Shown: positions 7,611 to 30,818 of the stretch, in pieces
How positions within the stretch are numbered: position 1 is the stretch's first letter
How the letters are laid out: each line of letters opens with the position of its first letter
Assembly (NCBI RefSeq): GCF_002075285.3
Contig: NZ_CP021983.2
Span: 2,910,001 to 2,942,000 of the forward strand
DNA length: 32,000 nucleotides
Direction of reading: 5' to 3'
From: Halomicronema hongdechloris C2206
GTDB lineage: Bacteria > Cyanobacteriota > Cyanobacteriia > Phormidesmidales > Phormidesmidaceae
Notes under the pieces: model-generated
What the model saw: the letters and a program-made list of their open reading frames with translations, nothing else
Told to the model about the DNA's origin: nothing
The model's database searches: none
Made by a program: the position numbers and the translations under genes

Positions 7611-7690
7611 CCCTTCCTCAGCGCTGCCACACCTTAGGTTTACCCTGCCGTCCTGAACCTCACCGTTGATGGCGGGGTCATTCACCGCGT

Positions 7691-7877
7691 CTGACCAAGT
7701 ATTTTATCTATGCAACTAACGATCTGCATTGATGGAATATTGATCTACAGCCTCTAACCAAGATTCCAGTCCATGCGACTAACGATCTGCATTGATGGAG
7801 TATTGGTTCACGGCCTCTAACCAAGTATTGCATCTATGTGATTAACGATCTGCATTGATGGAGTATTGGTTCACGGC
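7691..7877 (+). repeat. Three tandem copies of a 61-63-bp unit
   Basis: The units are 7691-7751, 7752-7814 and 7815-7877. The shared core is ct(c)taaccaag-N-taacgatctgcattgatgga(g/a)tattg(g/a)t(t/c)(c/t)ac(g/a)gc. Confidence 0.85.
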
Positions 7878-23518: not shown

Positions 23519-23955
23519 GGTTGGGAATTCTCCTGTACCTCTGGAACCCTGGATATCAAGGGCATTAGCGAGACAGATGGCCTGGCAATGGCCCAGATGC
23601 TGGCCATGCTGGGATTAAGTGGTCAGTCATCTGTCCCTCCCATCATCAAGTGATTGGAGCGCCTTTTGGATGATGAAATTGAGCGCTTGCAGCAAACGTC
23701 GGGTTGCAATCTCCTCGGGCCGAGGCCTGGGACACAGTACGCATTCCCGATGTGACGGCGCTGACGCTGGAGCAATGGGAGGCATTGCAGACCCGCTGAA
23801 GGAGAGGGTGACAGTGTGTACCTTGCTATAGGGATAGTATGAGGCAGCCGAATATGCAGTTGAAAGTGAAATCGAATCACTGACATTTTCAAGCTTAAAA
23901 CTCATCGTCAAGGATATTCTTTAAAGGCTAGGATCTCTTTCAATAGGGAGCTTTC

Positions 23956-24273
23956 ATGAACCAGGTAACGGTGCAAGAGGTGCAGCAGCACTTGCTGGAG
24001 TTGCTCAAGACTTTGAATCCCGGAGAAGCCGTCCAAATCGTGGCCGGAGAGCAGGTTGTCGGTTGGTTAGTGGCTGAGGAGGGAGTAGTCGCCCGTGCCC
24101 CCCGACAACCAGGCAGTGCAGTCGGCACCTTGACTATCGTGGCGGATGATGATGAGCATCTGCAAGACTTTGCGAACTACATGCCAAACGAACTGGCGAT
24201 TGGGCGATCGCAAAACTGCTGTAGCTCCGGTGAGAGTGAGAGAGTCATTGCGGCAAGAGAAGAGTCTGCTTAA
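23956..24273 (+). CDS. Phd/YefM-like antitoxin with a foreign 3' end (no cognate toxin follows)
   Basis: MNQVTVQEVQQHLLELLKTLNPGEAVQIVAGEQVVGWLV...RQPGSAVGTLTIVADDDEHLQDFANYM is the typical cyanobacterial prevent-host-death-type antitoxin. The last ~30 codons are antisense of a ParD-gene fragment (see findings). Confidence 0.6.
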   Translation: MNQVTVQEVQQHLLELLKTLNPGEAVQIVAGEQVVGWLVAEEGVVARAPRQPGSAVGTLTIVADDDEHLQDFANYMPNELAIGRSQNCCSSGESERVIAAREESA

Positions 24274-24319
24274 CTGGATAGCATAAGGATGATGCTCCCT
24301 CAATTTAAGTGAGAAGCGA

Positions 24320-24550
24320 ATGACCCTGGATGACATATTTGCATTAGTTAGACAGCTGTCAGTACTCGATCAGGTCAAACTGATCGAGCGCATTGCACCT
24401 GAGATTGAGCGTGCTTTGCAGAATCCGCAGACTTTACCTCGCAAATCTTTGTGGGGAATCTGTGTCGATCTTGGAGACGCGCCGTCTGACACCGATATCA
24501 CTGAAGCCAGAAACGAGGCATGGGCTAATTTTCCACGGGATGCAATGTGA
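24320..24550 (+). CDS. VapB-type antitoxin (small, acidic C-terminus)
   Basis: This is a 76-aa ORF whose stop overlaps the start of the PIN gene. The assignment rests on position plus size; the fold was not recognised. Confidence 0.5.
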   Translation: MTLDDIFALVRQLSVLDQVKLIERIAPEIERALQNPQTLPRKSLWGICVDLGDAPSDTDITEARNEAWANFPRDAM

Positions 24551-24951
24551 TGCTGCGTGCGGTTATCGATACCCATGCACTTATCTGGTATCTCTATGGG
24601 GATTCCCGACTTTCGTTAACGGCCCGCAATTTTATCGAGCAAGTGGCAGAAGCAGGTGATCAACTTGCGGTGTCGGCCATTACGTTAGCCGAGATGGTCT
24701 ATTTGGGTGAACGAGAACGGATCAACCCACAAACGCTGGAAAGGTTGATAGCCGAAATGGCCTCTGAAAGCACACTTCTGGTAGAAATCCCGCTCAATGT
24801 TGCCGCCGTGTTGACTCTCAAAGATGTGCCCCGAGACATCGTCCCAGAATTGCCAGACCGAATCATTACTGCTACGGCTGTTTCTCTCAAACTGCCTATC
24901 ATTACCCGCGATCGCAAAATTCAGGCGTCGGCAATATCTGTCATTTGGTGA
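24547..24951 (+). CDS. vapC: PIN-domain ribonuclease toxin
   Basis: VIDTHALIWYL (Asp1), AITLAEM (Glu), PDRIITATA (Asp) and ITRDRKI (Asp) are present. It overlaps the upstream ORF by 4 nt. Confidence 0.8.
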   Translation: MMLRAVIDTHALIWYLYGDSRLSLTARNFIEQVAEAGDQLAVSAITLAEMVYLGERERINPQTLERLIAEMASESTLLVEIPLNVAAVLTLKDVPRDIVPELPDRIITATAVSLKLPIITRDRKIQASAISVIW

Positions 24952-25181
24952 TAGGTTGCCGTGATTTCGAGTTGACATGGGAGGCATTGCAGGAGCGGAA
25001 AGCGGTCATTCGCCTGAATGAGCCGCCACCATTGCTGATGATAGAGGTAGTGAGCGAGTCTACCAAGAGCACAGACTATCGGGCCAAGCGGGCGGAGTAT
25101 AGCGTGTTGGATATTCCGGAATACTGGATATGTGATCCGCTCAATTCCGGATGGTGTGGTATTAGAAGGAAAAATTCGTAG
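24945..25181 (+). pseudogene. Uma2-family endonuclease internal fragment
   Basis: EPPPLLMIEVVSESTKSTDYRAKRAEYSVLDIPEYWICDPL is the Uma2 catalytic core (E.vS.s....D...K...Y...gi.eYWivD). Both termini are missing, and the frame runs into a DUF4160 fragment. Confidence 0.65.
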
Positions 25182-25296
25182 CTCTAAGCTTAAGCTCGTT
25201 GCAGCCTGGATTGAAATCCACCAGGATGAACTGATGGCTAATTGGGAATTGGCGATCGCGGGTGAGCAAGTTTTCAAGATTGACCCGCTAAGGTAG
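25160..25296 (+). pseudogene. DUF4160 C-terminal fragment
   Basis: My translation in another frame is VLEGKIRSSKLKLVAAWIEIHQDELMANWELAIAGEQVFKIDPLR*. This matches the DUF4160 C-terminus (l...v..WielH..ELl.nWela.....p.kI.PL). The N-terminal half has been replaced by the Uma2 fragment. Confidence 0.6.
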
Positions 25297-25305
25297 GAGG
25301 AAGCA

Positions 25306-25560
25306 ATGTCTCCCAAGGTTGTAACAGTCGAACCGTTAACGAATTACCAACTGCGACTATTTTTTGATAACAGTGAGGTCAGACGATTTGATGTCTCTCC
25401 GTATCTGGGAAAAGGCATCTTTCAGGAATTAAAAAATGGCTATTACTTTAATCAGGTCAAGCCGTTCTTTGGGGGTGTGCAGTGGCCCCATGAACAAGAT
25501 TTTGGCCCGGATACGCTGTTTTTAGAAAGCGTATTCGAGCGGTCTTGGGAAGCTGCGTAG
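25306..25560 (+). CDS. DUF2442 domain protein
   Basis: VVTVEPLTNYQLRLFFDNSEVRRFDVSPYLGKGIFQELKNGYYFNQV...VQWPHEQDFGPDTLF is present. It sits 9 nt after the truncated DUF4160 partner. Confidence 0.75.
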   Translation: MSPKVVTVEPLTNYQLRLFFDNSEVRRFDVSPYLGKGIFQELKNGYYFNQVKPFFGGVQWPHEQDFGPDTLFLESVFERSWEAA

Positions 25561-25607
25561 GACGAAAGTATCCCGACTGACGCGAGGTATGATGTGACAA
25601 ACTCGAC

Positions 25608-25871
25608 TCATGGCTCGGCGTGGCGATGCCGAAGACGCTGACGAATGGTGTCGATTTCTGAGGAGGCTTTTAGCAGTTCGCCGCGCTCAGCTTCACTTGC
25701 ACCCAGCAAGACCTCGCTGCGGAGTTCTGCAAAGCGTCCCTGATAAAGCTGCTCACGTTCCGCTAGCGCTTGCAGTCCTGCCAGCAGGATGTCATCCAGG
25801 GAGGCGTATTTGCCACTGGCAAGCTGGCGATCGCAAAACTGCTGTAACTCCGGTGAGAGTGAGAGAGCCAT
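25608..25871 (-). CDS. ParD/CopG-type antitoxin, orphan (no ParE downstream)
   Basis: MALSLSPELQQFCDRQLASGKYASLDDILLAGLQALAEREQ fits the ParD_antitoxin pattern (sisL.pel..fi..qv.sGrY.s.sevi...L..L). Confidence 0.7.
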   Translation of the reverse strand: MALSLSPELQQFCDRQLASGKYASLDDILLAGLQALAEREQLYQGRFAELRSEVLLGASEAERGELLKASSEIDTIRQRLRHRHAEP

Positions 25872-25919
25872 TGCTGCACTGGAATGGTCGGTTGATATAG
25901 CTATCAGCTTAGCGCGTAG

Positions 25920-28900
25920 TCAAAGGATGGTAGATGAACCCACTTCACCCGCTGCTGAGCTTTCCGAGGAGTGGTCAACCGCCCCCAACGCCAACATTGA
26001 CGCCCGCTGAGCCTCCGTCAGCCCCCTTACTCCAGTAATGTTGGTGCCTTCATAGGGGCGGGGTATTTGCAACACCTTTAAACATTCGCCCGTGCTCACC
26101 TGCCACAGACGAATGGTGGCATCATTACTGCCTGTCGCTAACCATTGCCCATCGGGACTAAACCCAACCGATCTGACCCAGTTGGTATGCCCTGTTAAGG
26201 TCTGGCGGCATGCCCCCGTGCTCACCTGCCACAGACGAATGGTGGCATCAGCGCTGCCTGTCGCTAACCATTGCCCATCGGGACTAAACCCAACCGAACT
26301 GACCCGGTTGGTATGCCCTGTTAAGGTCTGGCGGCATTTCCCCGTGCTCACCTGCCACAGACGAATGGTGGCATCATTACTGCCTGTCGCTAACCATTGC
26401 CCATCGGGACTAAACCCAACCGATCTGACCCAGTTGGTATGCCCTGTTAAGGTCTGGCGGCATGCCCCCGTGCTCACCTGCCACAGACGAATCGTGGCAT
26501 CATCGCTGCCTGTCGCTAGCCATTGCCCATCGGGACTAAACCCAACCGAACTGACCCAGTTGGTATGCCCTGTTAAGGTCTGGCGGCATTTCCCCGTGCT
26601 CACCTGCCACAGACGAATCGTGGCATCATCGCTGCCCGTGGCCAGCCATTGCCCATCGGGACTAAACGCGACAGATCTGACCCAATTGGTGTGTCCGATT
26701 AAGGTTTTGCGGCATTCCCCTGTACTTACCTGCCACAGCCGGATAATGGCATCTCCACTACCCGTGGCTAACCATTGCCCATCGGGACTAAACGCGACAG
26801 AGTTCACCCAATTAGTGTGTCCGATTAAGGTTTTGCGGCATTCCCCTGTACTTACCTGCCACAGCTGGATAATGGCCTCTCCACTACCTGTGGCTAGCCA
26901 TTGCCCATCGGGACTAAACACCATAGATTTGACCGAATTGGTGTGTCCGGTTAAGGTTTGGCAGCATTCCCCTGTACTTACCTGCCATAGGCGAGTAGTA
27001 GCATCATCACTACCTGTGGCTAGCCATTGTCCATCGGGACTAAACACCACTGAGTTCACCCAATTGGTGTGTCCGATTAAGGTTTTGCGGCATTCCCCTG
27101 TACTCACCTGCCACAATTGGATAGCGCCATCATCCCCACCTGTAGCTAACCATTGCCCATCGGGACTAAACACCACAGATTTGACCGAATTAGTGTGTCC
27201 GGTTAAGGTTTGGCAGCATTCCCCTGTACTTACCTGCCATAGACGGATAGTGGCATCATTACCACCTGTGGCTAACCATTGTCCATCCGGACTGAAAGAG
27301 ACAGAAGAGATTCGCCCAAACGGGTAGGTCAACGCAGATCGAATCCATCGGCTATTGACTAGATTCCATCCATGCAGTTCTATTCCACTTAAATAAATTT
27401 GTCTGAGGGTCAATCGAGAGAAATCAAACGGTTGGACGTCTGATCTCACCTGAACTAGCAAATTTAATAGATTGCCAGCAGCATATCCCCTACCCCAATC
27501 AGAGTGTTGACGAATGGTTTGAAGTGATACGCAGACGTGTTGATCTAAATTGGCAATACAAACTGCAATTGGCTCCAGAATAAGGCGCATCTGGGTTTCT
27601 CGCACATAGTCTTTCGCTGTAGCTTGAATCAACGTATGAGTATGAAAAAGGTCAAATTGTTGAGTATTTAGCTCTCCACTAACCTGCTCAACAAACCGAT
27701 CTGTAGCAAACTCCATGATCACGTTTTGCAGGGTGAACTGCTTGTCCACGGTTTCTATCAGGTAACGGTCAGTCAACCCCCTCAACGCACTCCGCACTTC
27801 CCGCTTCGTCACGGGCGGCAGCAGGTCTTCCATCAACTCATCCAGCCCCACGGGTTCGCGGTTGATTGCCAGCCAGAACAGAATGGAACGCTCCAAGGGC
27901 ACAAGGCGGGTAAGGTGCTGGTCGAGTAGGCTGCGCACATCCTCAACCGCGGCCCCTTCCTCTTCCAGAAAATCATCCACATCGCCCAAGAACTCTCGCT
28001 GAATGGCCGTCGCCACCAGATGTAGTGCTTGGGGATTACCGCTATAGCGACAAATCAGCTCTTGGCCTTGGGTATCGGCTTCATCCAGTTCTAAGCCCTT
28101 TGCCTTCAGAATTGCGCGTCCGGCTTCAATATTGATGCCCGTTACCGACCACAGACGCACAGGGAAGCGATCGCCCGCCATTGGAGCCAGTTCGCGGGGA
28201 CATTCCCGACTGGTCAGCAGCAGGCAACTTTGATGCTCGGCCTCGCCAATCCGGTGAATCAGTTCCCCATACCCTTCATATCCGCCTCGAAACTGCCCGG
28301 TTGATTCCGCCTGCAAAACCGATTCCAGGTTATCTAGCACCAGCAAGCAGCGGTGTTCCCGTAAATAGTGGAGCAGACGAATGATGCGTTCGCCCAGGCG
28401 GGTGGGCAGATTGATTTCCGTTTCCTGCTGGTCCGAGAGGAACTGAATCAGCCGCACCAGAATCTCATCCAGCGGTGGGGCTTCCCGCAAACTGCGCCAG
28501 ATCACATAGTCGAACTGGTCATAAATCTGGTCTGCGACCTTGGCGGCCAGAGAAGTCTTGCCGATGCCGCCCATGCCCAGCAGCGTCACCAGGCGGCACG
28601 GCTCTGTCAGTATCCAGCGGTTGAGGATGGCGAGCTCCTCTGTGCGGCCAAAGAAAATGCTGGTGTCCGGTTTTTCGCCCCAGTCAATTTTGGCCGACGA
28701 TCGCGTTTCCTGAGGTGTTGGCTCGGGACCTGCTGCTTGTGGAGGCAATTCAGGCAGGCCATAATCAGTGGTTTCCAGGTCTAACCCAAAGGCTGCGAAA
28801 AAGGTTTGCACCGAAGCTTCATCTACGGGTGCCGTGCGATCGCAAATCTTCTTGATCGTCTTGCGGCTGATACCTGCTCGCTCTTCCAACTCTGCTTGGG

Positions 28901-29006
28901 TGAAACGCTTGCCGTATTTCTCTCGATCTTGGGCCGCTGCGATCGCAGCTTCCAGTCTCTTTTGGCCGGGCTCGGTGAGGACAACACCGCGTTGACGCTG
29001 ACTCAT
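25920..29006 (-). CDS. STAND NTPase: N-terminal HTH + NB-ARC/AAA-type P-loop + helical arm + 10 WD40 repeats (1028 aa from ATG 29006)
   Basis: The HTH is [20 protein letters not shown]. Walker A is [13 protein letters not shown] (~28545-28585), Walker B is CLLVLDNLE, and LLLTSRE follows. The repeats are ten copies of [11 protein letters not shown]....I.LWQVSTG.C..TL.GHTN. The tail [27 protein letters not shown] is common in cyanobacterial WD40 proteins. The 88 codons upstream of ATG 29006 look non-coding. Confidence 0.85.
26091..27330 (-). repeat. Tandem 126-bp WD40-coding repeats (10 units)
   Basis: The period is 126 nt. Units 26091-26216 and 26343-26468 are identical over 126/126 nt by eye, and adjacent units differ at ~8 positions. 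The left block (to ~26640) and the right block use different synonymous codons. Confidence 0.9.
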
Positions 29007-29329
29007 GGCGGGCGGGGGGGGGAGATGACACACAGCCGGCGGGAGCCCTTGGGGCGGCAGTGGCGTTTCACAGCACTCGACAATCGGAATGTTAAGGGAA
29101 AGTTCCCGAGGCTTATGCCGATGGTAGGCGATCTTTCCCAAAAATTCCCCTGCCCGGCAGGGCCGGTTGCAGGGGCGATCTAGGGGTGGCCAGAAAGTTT
29201 CTGGCAACCTTCTCCTAAGCTGCCGAACTTCCTGGGAATAACGCCATTGCCCCGACACACTGAGGGCCATGGATGCAAAACTTACCAGGAGACCCCATGC
29301 ACCTAGCCGACGTCTTTCAAACCCCGAGT

Positions 29330-29540
29330 TATTCCCCTATCGCGGCCGCGGCGTCGTGGCCGCACCATCACCCCGGCAGACCGGGGCCGGGTCCGCTTCC
29401 AGGCCAGCTATTGGCCCGCCCGCCTCTTCAACGGCAGCCGGTGGCCAGCCCTAGCGCCAGGAGAACCGGTGGAAGTGGTGGGCCGTGACGGCATCACCCT
29501 ATTGATCAAACCCCTAGGGCGTAGCCAGGAGACAGGATGA
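29330..29540 (+). pseudogene. NfeD-like C-terminal (OB-fold) fragment, N-terminal membrane part missing
   Basis: My translation is ITPADRGRVRFQASYWPARLFNGSRWPALAPGEPVEVVGRDGITLLIKPLGRSQETG*. This fits the NfeD C-terminus (I.pg..GrV.f.Gs.W.Ar......i.pG..V.Vvgr.G.tL.V.P). Upstream residues ([18 protein letters not shown]) sit in two other frames. Confidence 0.4.
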
Positions 29541-29847
29541 AACGGCGACGCTCTCGACCCTGGCTGTTGACAATCACCCTCAGGGCATTGAAATACTCTG
29601 GCTGGCCCTGGTGGGGCTGACCCTGACCTATCTGGTGGCCCTGGCTCTCGGGTTTGGGGTATGGCCGCTCTGGTGAGCGAGTTGACCCTGTGGCTGCTGC
29701 CGCGAGCCTTGGTCTTGCTGGCTGTCTGGTTGCGATCGCAACCGTAGCGAGTCGATGCAGTCCTGAGACCAGCCCATCACAAGTTCCCCATGCCCGTGAG
29801 CTAAGGTCTAGGAGTAATCCCCTAGGCTCCCGTTCAACACTCTTCCC

Positions 29848-30586
29848 ATGGTCCCTGACCCCGCCGCCACCGCTACCCGCCCCGCCGTCTTCCATATGGA
29901 GCAGGTCAGCAAAGTCTACGGCCATGGGCGAAGTAGAAGTCCATGCCCTCCAGGTCCGTAGATCTAGACCTCTACGAAGGAGAATTCGTGGTATTGCTAG
30001 GTCCCTCGGCAGTGGCAAGTCTACCCTGCTGAAATATTCTGGGTGGCCTAGACGTGCCCAGCGGCGGCCAGGTGTATTTTCGCAACAGGCCCTGACCCCA
30101 AGCCCAATGAGCAGGCTCTGACCCGGTTTCGCCGCCATGCCGTGGGGTTTGTATTCCAGTTCTACAACCTGATTCCCAGCCTCACCGCCAAAAGAAAGTG
30201 GCCCTGGTCACCGACATCGCCCGCCGCCCCCATGGCCCCAGACCAGGCCCTGGACCTGGTGGGCCTGGCCGATCGGCTGGACCATTTTCCGGCCCAGCTG
30301 TCCGGGGGGGAGCAGCAGCGGGTGGCCATCGCCCGGGCCATTGCCAAGCGGCCAGAGGTGCTCCTGTGCGACGAGCCCACCGGCGCCCTAGACTTTGAGA
30401 CCGGCAAGCGGGTGCTGGAAACCCTGGAGCGGGTGAACCAGGAATTTGGCACCACCACGGCGGTGATCACCCACAATGCCGGCATCGCCGCCCATGGCCA
30501 ACCGGGTGGTGCACATGCGCAGCGGTCGTATCACCCAGATCGATCGCAACGCCCAGAAGGCCTCCCCCAGTCAGTTGGAATGGTAA
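29848..30586 (+). pseudogene. ABC transporter ATP-binding protein (MacB/LolD-like single domain) with about nine frame-disrupting indels
   Basis: Conceptual repair gives ...[217 protein letters not shown]... The pieces are scattered over all three plus frames. Confidence 0.75.
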
Positions 30587-30619
30587 GGTGCCGTGTGTTA
30601 GCTATCGGCTATGAACTTA

Positions 30620-30705
30620 GGGGAGATGGGGAGATGGGGAGATGGGGAGATAGGGAGATAGGGAGATGGGGAGATGGGGAGATGGGGAGATGGAGAGTGG
30701 GAAGT
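30620..30705. repeat. Tandem octamer array GGGGAGAT (about 10 units with variants)
   Basis: ggggagat x4, agggagat x2, ggggagat x3, ggagagtg. Confidence 0.85.
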
Positions 30706-30752
30706 CAGAATTATCAACAAGATCATCAAGTCGAAGCGAGTTTTGAGGTCTT

Positions 30753-30818
30753 AGTTTTTAGTTTTCAGTTTTCAATTCACAGCATCAAGCCCTAACTCAA
30801 AATTCAAAATTCAAAACT
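30753..30818. repeat. Heptamer arrays (agttttt/agttttc x3; caaaatt x2-3)
   Basis: agtttttagttttcagttttc is at 30753-30773 and caaaattcaaaattcaaaact at 30798-30818. The latter is the reverse complement of the gaatttt array at 16694-16714. Confidence 0.8.

Follow-up and report, generated by a model that had tools for sequence, protein, structure and literature searches.

A gene encoding a cyanobacterial, Apaf-1-like STAND NTPase with a WD40 sensor array was identified on the chromosome of Halomicronema hongdechloris C2206, in a stretch of 32,000 nucleotides (nt) of contig NZ_CP021983.2 (positions 2,910,001 to 2,942,000; hereafter the window, whose numbering is used throughout). Its open reading frame (ORF), as given by the ORF list, lies on the minus strand (25920-29006, ATG at 29006) and specifies a protein of 1028 amino acids (aa). 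In the reading that we consider fairly probable, the protein joins an N-terminal helix-turn-helix (HTH) module, by way of its NTPase, to a homogenised sensor of ten WD40 units, four fewer than its relatives carry, and acts as a ligand-triggered regulator; a ParD-family antitoxin gene immediately downstream would stand apart from it. The HTH-NB-ARC-WD40 architecture had been proposed in a first-pass annotation made from the letters alone, and it is borne out by an NB-ARC match above the Pfam cutoff, intact NTPase motifs and a Foldseek match to Apaf-1, with weaker matches for the HTH. Feature coordinates are collected in Table 1.

The array is composed of ten in-phase 126-nt units, each encoding 42 residues, as originally described; both a hidden Markov model (HMM) and Pfam counted ten (PF00400 WD40, 10 stretches, E 6e-137), and Tandem Repeats Finder reported a period of 126 with 9.6 copies and 88% matches (26083-27293). 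Units were phased here from the GH dipeptide, so that unit position 1 of the first-pass annotation corresponds to position 5. A conserved block of 11 residues recurs ten times at an exact spacing of 42 residues, and neither this block nor LWQVSTG varies in any of the ten; GHTN, also described as invariant, is so in units 2-10 only, unit 1 having YPFG in its place. The residues of the D-H-S/T-W tetrad (H2, T20, D24 and W30) each occur in nine or all ten of the units, and the position of the eponymous 'WD' dipeptide reads WQ. Mean pairwise identity over the ten units was 0.80 for amino acids and 0.79 for nucleotides. Highly repetitive propellers have been defined as those with at least two consecutive blades at a median blade-to-blade identity above 60% (PMC9218822), and with its mean amino acid identity the array falls within that class. 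The repeats had been called near-identical, with their variation confined to a handful of codons. The first description is apt as regards their high similarity and one pair, 26091-26216 and 26343-26468, which indeed matches at 126/126 nt, but it overstates the likeness of the array at large, with its mean nucleotide identity of 79% and a proportion of synonymous differences (pS) of 0.44 in pairwise comparisons among internal units. The second does not hold: only six of the 42 codons (12, 14, 16, 17, 30 and 31) are identical in all ten units, and 15 more vary synonymously only.

The differences between units are structured along the array. In the GH phase, units 6-9 differ pairwise at 4-18 nt and the boundary unit 10 differs from them at 13-26 nt; units 2-5 differ among themselves at 11-23 nt, as opposed to 22-37 nt between these units and the 6-9 block, and unit 1 stands 32-47 nt away from all other units. 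The earlier statement that neighbouring units differ at about 8 nt thus fits the final four units (4-7 nt in the phase used there) but not the others (14-24 nt) or the first (32-52 nt). Third-position G+C is likewise lower in the older units 2-5 and higher in the younger units 6-10. An exact repeat of 152 nt (26089-26240 and 26341-26492) sits at an offset of 252 nt, which gives the final four units an A-B-A'-B' arrangement, in which A and A' differ at 4 nt. This pattern indicates that a two-unit block was recently duplicated at the 3' end of the array. A very recent amplification of the entire array was considered and rejected, given the pS of 0.44; young units are confined to 7-10.

When the non-repeat part of the protein was used as a query, 1091 proteins were retrieved at E <1e-10, and all of those carrying an organism name were cyanobacterial. 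The closest were 75-81% identical and came from Nodosilinea, Leptolyngbya and related lineages; a genome scan with one genome per species yielded 28 loci, the best of them 82% identical, and no family member within 90% identity of the window protein was present in a collection of 15 billion proteins. Units were counted in these relatives with an HMM trained on those of the window. Exactly 14 units at a spacing of 42 residues, a number sufficient for two propellers of seven blades, are present in each of the 13 intact homologues whose arrays are regular (1177-1297 aa), compared with ten in the window, so that the suspicion of an unusual blade number was justified; the window protein is about four units short of this canon, with its boundary unit and C-terminal tail kept. 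Highly similar units, with a blade consensus nearly that of the window, were found in Nodosilinea nodulosa PCC 7104 (L010; 14 units, mean amino acid identity 0.78), Nodosilinea sp. P-1105 (L017; 14 units, 0.79), Leptolyngbya sp. KIOST-1 (L029) and the metagenome proteins P0008 and P0006. The remaining homologues have ordinary divergent units, at identities of 0.30-0.57.

The KIOST-1 locus (JQFA01000002.1, 5744-8150) is a positional orthologue of the window gene and has 19 units, on a contig of 3.8 Mb, in a frameshifted array: after the eighth unit the frame is broken by an 11-nt offset, beyond which lie eleven almost identical units and a normal tail, and the annotation splits the gene into products of 917 and 512 aa. 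Two metagenome contigs, one of them at ~3.8x coverage, have arrays of 7 and 3 units, which could be assembly collapses. In all, intact divergent arrays always have 14 units, and the homogenised arrays 3, 7, 10, 14, 14 and 19. Ordinary divergent repeats in orthologues had been named at the outset as a sign against a diversifying receptor domain, and such repeats were found in a syntenic homologue from an uncultured cyanobacterium, present in two copies (L008 and L009), and in most of the family. The pattern fits a known cycle of blade amplification and differentiation, and the sensor role is left standing.

The homogenised arrays have evolved in concert, as was originally suggested. Whichever internal unit of the window, L010 or L017 array is taken, its closest counterpart by nucleotides is another unit of that array; window units 2-10 are 4-18 nt from their nearest neighbour in the array, as compared with 15-29 nt for units of other arrays. 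Boundary units behave somewhat differently. When L010 is compared with L017, the two first units have each other as nearest neighbour (26 nt), and the two fourteenth units also pair up (25 nt); in the window, unit 1 is 33 nt from unit 1 of L017 and 32 nt from the nearest unit of its own array, and unit 10 has unit 8 of that array as its closest. On the whole, this is how an array homogenised by unequal exchange classically looks, with the edge units partly escaping. Recurrent unequal exchange inside the arrays of one sub-lineage, the window included, keeps their units alike and also destabilises their number, and the ten units of the window are most simply explained by a net in-frame loss of four.

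The two halves of the gene seem to have had different histories. Identity between the window and L008 proteins, calculated over 40 aa at a time, is 88-100% at aa 161-440 and 20-48% past aa 480, and identity to homologues of the L008 type in general falls away from about aa 480; L010 and L017 display the opposite trend. In the NB-ARC half, the nearest relatives are L008, L003 and L005, with a proportion of nonsynonymous differences (pN) of 0.01-0.08; in the linker and first WD unit (aa 481-560), they are L010 and L017 (pN ~0.2 vs 0.36-0.52). Amino acid identity over the whole WD half likewise favours the latter two. The gene thus looks mosaic, with a boundary near aa 450-480 (about 27570-27660). 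Any such exchange would be old, since synonymous sites are near saturation in both halves. A recent horizontal exchange as the cause of the 95-100% identity in the nucleotide-binding oligomerisation domain (NOD) was rejected on the grounds of its pS of 0.3-0.8. As judged from these comparisons, strong constraint on the NOD is combined with an old difference in, or an old exchange of, the sensor half.

The NTPase itself is intact and strongly constrained. In a Pfam search with the N-terminal 560 aa, NB-ARC (PF00931) was matched at E 2.1e-12 and 47.3 bits (cutoff 23.5), and NACHT came second (E 4e-9, 36.8 bits, cutoff 26.7). The expected motifs occur in order: GMGGIGKT (Walker A) at residue 144, CLLVLDN (Walker B) at 220, LLLTSR (sensor-1) at 262 and GNPQAL (GLPLA-like) at 323. 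Key residues are kept in 50-58 of 58 homologues (mostly 54-58), and G144, G146, G147, G149 and K150 are invariant in the family alignment. A candidate for the MHD-type histidine, which typically closes the winged helix of NB-ARC proteins in plants and animals, was placed by pattern only and reads FTLQNV, with Gln in 57 of the 58 homologues. Between the window and its homologues the module has a pN of 0.01-0.04 at a pS of 0.3-0.8. NCBIfam models matched the N-terminal part only far below threshold (FxSxx_TPR and AfsR; AfsR at E 0.004 and 15 bits, cutoff 1430), and no Pfam family matched the short, family-specific C-terminal tail.

The N-terminus probably carries an HTH of the Xre type, as indicated by matches that are weak but mutually consistent. 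HTH_31, HTH_3 and HTH_26 of Pfam all match it, each below its cutoff; among the N-termini of 26 family members, HTH_26 was matched in 10, HTH_3 in 6 and HTH_31 in 5. Over aa 33-81, a profile of the same 26 N-termini finds 3pxp, an HTH protein, at E 1e-3 and HipB at E 7e-3. In a full-length AlphaFold2 (AF2) model built on 58 sequences (mean predicted local distance difference test score, pLDDT, 83.7), the region forms a confidently predicted N-terminal bundle of helices (12-30, 37-44, 48-56 and 63-71; pLDDT 84-92). A Foldseek search with the model returned full-length Apaf-1 structures at the top (3j2t, 3sfz and 5juy; E 1e-37 to 1e-39 over ~1100 columns), followed by the WRAP propeller 2ymu at 44% identity.

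The start codon at 29006 is favoured because the N-termini of homologues begin there, with a conserved start of 11 residues. A longer open frame reaches upstream to 29270 in the ORF list, and NCBI annotations of the protein exist at both 1028 and 1116 aa. The start at 29270 was rejected, as the 88-codon extension has no Pfam match, is absent from homologues and holds a terminator-like hairpin (29148-29162). On the opposite strand, an ORF of 411 aa (26092-27327, plus) covers the whole WD array; since the same stop-free antisense frame recurs in each unit, it is probably no gene but a by-product of the repeat.

Variation among the units was measured as entropy pooled over 43 internal units from six homogenised arrays. 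The peaks fall at positions 4 (2.47 bits), 7 (2.37) and 23 (1.91), followed by 38, 36, 39, 5, 10 and 42; within the window array alone, the leading variable positions are 7, 23, 10, 36, 5 and 26. After correction for phase, these agree with the variable positions listed in the first-pass annotation, to which 28 and 42 should be added. Strands were assigned with DSSP on the AF2 model (a, 6-11; b, 17-22; c, 27-31; d, 37-41), and positions 42 and 1-5 accordingly form the d-a loop, 7 lies where strand a begins on the top face, and the b-c turn is made up of 23-26. In the established topology of WD40 domains, the d-a loop and the b-c turn lie on the top face. This set, 11 of the 42 positions, holds about 50% of the total entropy. 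The claim that variability lines the top, ligand-binding surface was therefore right for the d-a loop and the b-c turn but not for a second cluster (36, 38 and 39) at the c-d loop and outer strand d, nor for position 10, which lies in strand a. In HET-E/NWD proteins of Podospora, the selected codon pairs (7,9) and (25,27) are located in those same two structural elements (PMC1805685), and highly repetitive WD40 proteins at large are reported to show this pattern (PMC5587647). Since the hot positions vary from blade to blade, each blade presents a different set of contacts.

The ratio of nonsynonymous to synonymous rates (dN/dS, Nei-Gojobori) in the window array was 0.03 for codons outside the hot positions and 0.39 for hot codons. 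A per-site test by parsimony counting on 48 distinct units, a crude method that ignores recombination, gave a global dN/dS of 0.22, and for most scaffold codons purifying selection was significant; the rates at codons 4, 7 and 23 are 1.16, 1.23 and 0.80 times the global dS. The blade scaffold is thus under strong purifying selection, and three or four top-face positions per blade (among 4, 5, 7 and 23) change at an approximately neutral rate. Diversifying selection, as invoked in the first-pass annotation, was not confirmed by hot codons evolving at 0.8-1.2 times the global synonymous rate, a behaviour that relaxed constraint would explain equally well.

How ten blades might be arranged was examined in the full-length AF2 model and in a model of the WD part only (pLDDT 83.9, predicted TM-score, pTM, 0.74, and pLDDT >90 for units 2-8). 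Every unit is folded as four strands in both. Ring size was derived indirectly, from Foldseek TM-scores: the fit to closed seven-bladed propellers gave a target-normalised TM-score of 0.65-0.70 at a root-mean-square deviation (rmsd) of 6-7 A, that to eight-bladed propellers was moderate (0.76-0.79, rmsd 4-5 A), and the two-propeller WRAP structure aligned at an rmsd of 15 A. The models suggest that the ten units may form a single wider ring. Identical WRAP and PkwA blades have been seen to assemble into 8- and 9-bladed rings, and a dimer of five blades formed no 10-bladed ring (PMC6805158).

Three explanations for the shortfall of four units were weighed. The array might be an assembly artefact, in which a true array of 14 units (for example, with extra copies of the A-B block) has lost four near-identical ones. 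This would agree with the canon of 14 (10 + 2x2 = 14), with the 152-nt exact repeat at its 252-nt offset, which exceeds usual short-read k-mers, with the short arrays on relatives' metagenome contigs that look like collapses (3 and 7 units, one at ~3.8x coverage) and with the frameshifts in several adjoining upstream genes. The exact protein, however, is found on an NCBI contig of 5,577,845 bp; a contig of 5.58 Mb is of complete-chromosome grade and points to long reads, able to span the 1.26 kb of the array, and a collapse is made less likely by it. Frame, boundary units and tail are all intact, the 4 nt between A and A' mean that the block is not a perfect loop, and the 19-unit relative on its 3.8-Mb contig suggests that length variation is real. 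We consequently think an artefact improbable. Alternatively, the loss could be real and have killed the sensor, the gene being a young and still open pseudogene in a family of fast turnover. Decay of this kind is suggested by the strict count of 14 in intact regular homologues (13/13), by the KIOST-1 positional orthologue, broken by its 11-nt frameshift within a 19-unit array, by reports that disrupted, highly repetitive propellers are common in the class (PMC9218822) and by flanks rich in gene fragments (the ParE remnant, the split Uma2 gene and the frameshifted NfeD-like and ABC ATPase genes described below). It is opposed by a 1028-codon frame that is fully open with every NTPase motif intact, by the confident folding of the array in both AF2 models, by fungal NWD arrays of 10 to 12 units found in wild isolates (PMC1805685) and by the ability of WD40 blades to close rings of 8 or 9 (PMC6805158); on balance a decaying allele appears unlikely. 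Finally, the array could be a functional natural intermediate in a non-canonical propeller, the gain and loss of blades retuning recognition by an NLR-like HTH regulator. Such an intermediate could fold as one large ring, or as 7 + 3 blades completed in trans upon oligomerisation. This is the most speculative of the proposals, and we would give it little credence at present; if it were true, one locus would be seen in three genomes in three states, 14 divergent, 10 homogenised, and 19 homogenised with a frameshift.

As for what the protein does, we favour the ligand-triggered regulator. GutR, AfsR and MalT are STAND regulators in which a DNA-binding domain is combined with a NOD and a repeat sensor, and in which a ligand is proposed to trigger ATP-dependent oligomerisation and so to control DNA binding. 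By analogy with Apaf-1, MalT, AfsR and GutR (cited in PMC7159879 and PMC13581612), a ligand would bind the top face of the propeller and release autoinhibition; the NB-ARC module would exchange ADP for ATP and the protein would oligomerise; and the N-terminal HTH domains, now clustered, would bind DNA and change transcription. Another scenario is that of an immune or cell-death sensor, an NLR-type receptor for phage or for self/non-self recognition, with the HTH serving as an adaptor or as an effector targeting nucleic acids. In multicellular bacteria, such a role has been suggested for proteins of this class (PMC9218822, PMC7159879, PMC8195603), and the Apaf-1-like architecture is in keeping with it, the closest bacterial homologues of Apaf-1 having been reported from cyanobacteria (PMC13581612), as is a variable, concertedly evolving sensor surface like that of fungal HET-E/NWD proteins (PMC1805685). 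Members of the family also lie near toxin-antitoxin modules, Uma2 nucleases, a CHAT protease with a segment resembling an effector-associated domain (EAD; by eye) and Cas6/RAMP genes, and one relative has an EAD-like insert (by eye) between HTH and NB-ARC. The N-terminus, however, has no enzymatic effector domain, and the remainder of the window consists of ordinary housekeeping genes. PADLOC, run on the full protein, its N-terminal 560 aa and ParD, returned only HEAT-ARM_XIII, via the WD repeats, and IetA at the level of the P-loop (E 0.002-0.008), hence no defence-family match beyond the WD repeats; and the fusion of an HTH to a NOD and repeats is shared with established STAND regulators, GutR and AfsR among them (cited in PMC13581612). 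An immune function is regarded as possible but doubtful.

Four known systems come closest. WD40 propellers of the WRAP type are known on cyanobacterial STAND ATPases (Npun_R6612, PDB 2YMU; Dunin-Horkawicz 2014, Afanasieva 2019, Pereira and Lupas 2022). WRAP, too, is a cyanobacterial STAND NTPase with highly similar C-terminal 42-aa WD units; the canon of the window's family is also 14 units, and relatives with frameshift-disrupted arrays occur. WRAP differs in having 14 blades in two seven-bladed propellers, as opposed to ten units, and in Npun_R6612 blades that lack synonymous differences (PMC9218822), as opposed to a pS of 0.44; the Xre-type HTH N-terminus is a further distinction of the window protein. 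No TIR domain that would indicate a WRAP-like TIR-STAND partner was detected in the Pfam-scanned ORFs (13.8-25.9 kb and the upstream extension). HET-E, HET-D and NWD proteins share concerted evolution, an unstable unit number and hypervariability in the d-a loop, start of strand a and b-c turn (PMC1805685), whereas the NOD of the window protein scores better as NB-ARC than as NACHT, an HTH takes the place of the HET cell-death domain, and positive selection is not significant here. The order of NOD, winged helix, helical domain and WD40 sensor is that of Apaf-1, at an identity of ~20%, with an HTH instead of CARD and ten near-uniform blades instead of 15 differentiated ones (7+8). Like GutR, AfsR and MalT, the protein would combine a DNA-binding domain, here a probable HTH matched below curated cutoffs, with a STAND NOD and a sensor made of repeats; the sensor is WD40 rather than TPR/SUPR, and the HTH is of the Xre type rather than SARP or LuxR.

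Several observations weigh against the ligand-triggered regulator outlined above. All matches to HTH families lie under their curated thresholds, and neither a sigma-70-like promoter nor an operator-like site was found in 25400-29700. Ten units cannot form two seven-bladed propellers, and the protein may therefore not work like its 14-unit relatives; nor did Foldseek detect a canonical closed 7- or 8-bladed propeller in either AF2 model. Positive selection at the hot codons was not significant (best p 0.14, 48 units), and the frameshifted gene cluster directly upstream leaves some doubt about the quality of the local sequence.

Table 1. Features of the STAND locus, in window coordinates.
Feature	Coordinates	Strand	Basis
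STAND coding sequence, 1028 aa plus stop	25920..29006	-	ORF list; homologue N-termini
Probable Xre/Cro-C1-type helix-turn-helix module, aa 1-85	28752..29006	-	sub-cutoff Pfam matches; family profile; AF2 helices
NB-ARC/AP-ATPase oligomerisation module with winged helix, aa 105-450	27657..28694	-	Pfam; motifs; pN/pS
Walker A / P-loop codons GMGGIGKT, aa 144-151	28554..28577	-	motif; alignment
Helical linker (HD2-like) and short beta segments, aa 451-560	27327..27656	-	AF2 helices 466-520
WD40 array, ten in-phase 126-nt/42-aa units, aa 561-980	26067..27326	-	consensus spacing; HMM; Pfam; AF2
Units 1-5: boundary unit 1 and older sub-block, A/T-richer third positions	26697..27326	-	pairwise differences; GC 0.50
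Units 6-10: younger sub-block with A-B-A'-B' end	26067..26696	-	pairwise differences; GC 0.57
Conserved C-terminal tail	25923..26066	-	in all intact homologues; short low-confidence AF2 helix
Orphan ParD-family (ribbon-helix-helix) antitoxin gene	25608..25871	-	TIGR02606; Pfam; 48 nt past STAND stop codon
Remnant of first 14 ParE codons	25570..25611	-	tblastn with L008 ParE-like ORF: 71% over 14 aa, E 0.007
NfeD-like small gene, divergent, frameshifted, syntenic marker	29273..29530	+	Pfam NfeD E 2e-8; third-frame segment

The ParD gene was correctly placed by the first-pass annotation, 48 nt downstream on the same strand, and is recognised by TIGR02606 (E 2e-10, 40.6 bits, cutoff 46.2) and by Pfam ParD (E 2e-3). 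It had also been called an orphan, which is true in that no intact ParE follows; it is nevertheless what remains of a pair found in synteny elsewhere. The window locus is syntenic with L008/L009 and with KIOST-1, all having a divergent NfeD-like gene upstream, and Uma2 genes or fragments followed by ParD downstream. The window ParD is 85% identical to the ParD downstream of the L008/L009 homologue; in L008 a ParE-like ORF, apparently frameshifted, directly follows ParD. ParD also occurs downstream of the STAND gene in L001, L015 and L029, the gap exceeding 1 kb in L001 and L015 (contents of the gap not inspected). From the shared synteny and the ParE remnant, we conclude that ParD is what is left of a ParDE pair belonging to the syntenic block and lies outside the STAND system. 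A functional STAND-ParD operon was considered and rejected: one or more Uma2 genes or a fragment separate the two in L008/L009 and L029, and the ParD of L008 pairs with ParE.

The region around ParD (23642-25611) is a patchwork of toxin-antitoxin and nuclease fragments, in which a Uma2-family gene (23642-23921 and 24978-25145) is split by an inserted PIN/VapC pair (24320-24951) and a DUF4160/DUF2442 pair (25132-25560) occupies the place expected for ParE after ParD. On the other side of the STAND gene (29273-30800, plus strand), the NfeD-like gene, a small membrane protein gene and a MacB/LolD-like ABC ATPase gene are each frame-shifted at least once within ~1.5 kb. Roughly eight frame shifts were counted by eye, the segments are still similar to homologues, and their GC content is 61-65%; these are either real pseudogenes or locally poor sequence. 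An 8-nt repeat, GGGGAGAT, is present in 10.4 copies at 30620-30701, at the 3' end of the presumptive ABC ATPase pseudogene.

L008 and L009 are one region of 17.6 kb that occurs twice, inverted, on a metagenome contig of 79.8 kb (JBCCNE010000001.1, 52560-70215 and 9556-27211 reversed), and the duplicated region includes both the STAND gene and ParDE. Upstream in these copies lie genes for a CHAT protease, with C-terminal helices resembling an effector-associated domain, and for a trypco2-like small protein (labels by eye only). The metagenome protein P0010 (JGI, 849 aa), a close relative, has an extra helical insert at ~105-190, between HTH and NB-ARC, which resembles the C-terminal helical segment of the L008 CHAT protein; this resemblance hints that some family members may couple to protease effectors. 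The rest of the window contains ordinary metabolic and transport genes, and an intergenic tandem repeat with a unit of 63 nt (7681-7877, 3.1 copies, 83% matches). Rfam and tRNA scans of the whole window gave no match.

Good descriptions of highly repetitive WD40 STAND proteins already exist, and no new kind of system is presented here; the specific interest of the locus lies in the four-unit shortfall and in the three array states that, as synteny indicates, occur at one locus. It provides a comparative case in which the number of blades is fixed at 14 when they are divergent and ranges from 3 to 19 when they are homogenised. STAND proteins with similar, surface-variable repeats are candidate bacterial counterparts of the NLR receptors of animals, plants and fungi, and the locus bears on how such sensors gain new specificities; with an HTH as its output domain, the protein would seem to respond through transcription and not by killing the cell. 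It should be of use to research on repeat evolution and on bacterial NLR proteins.

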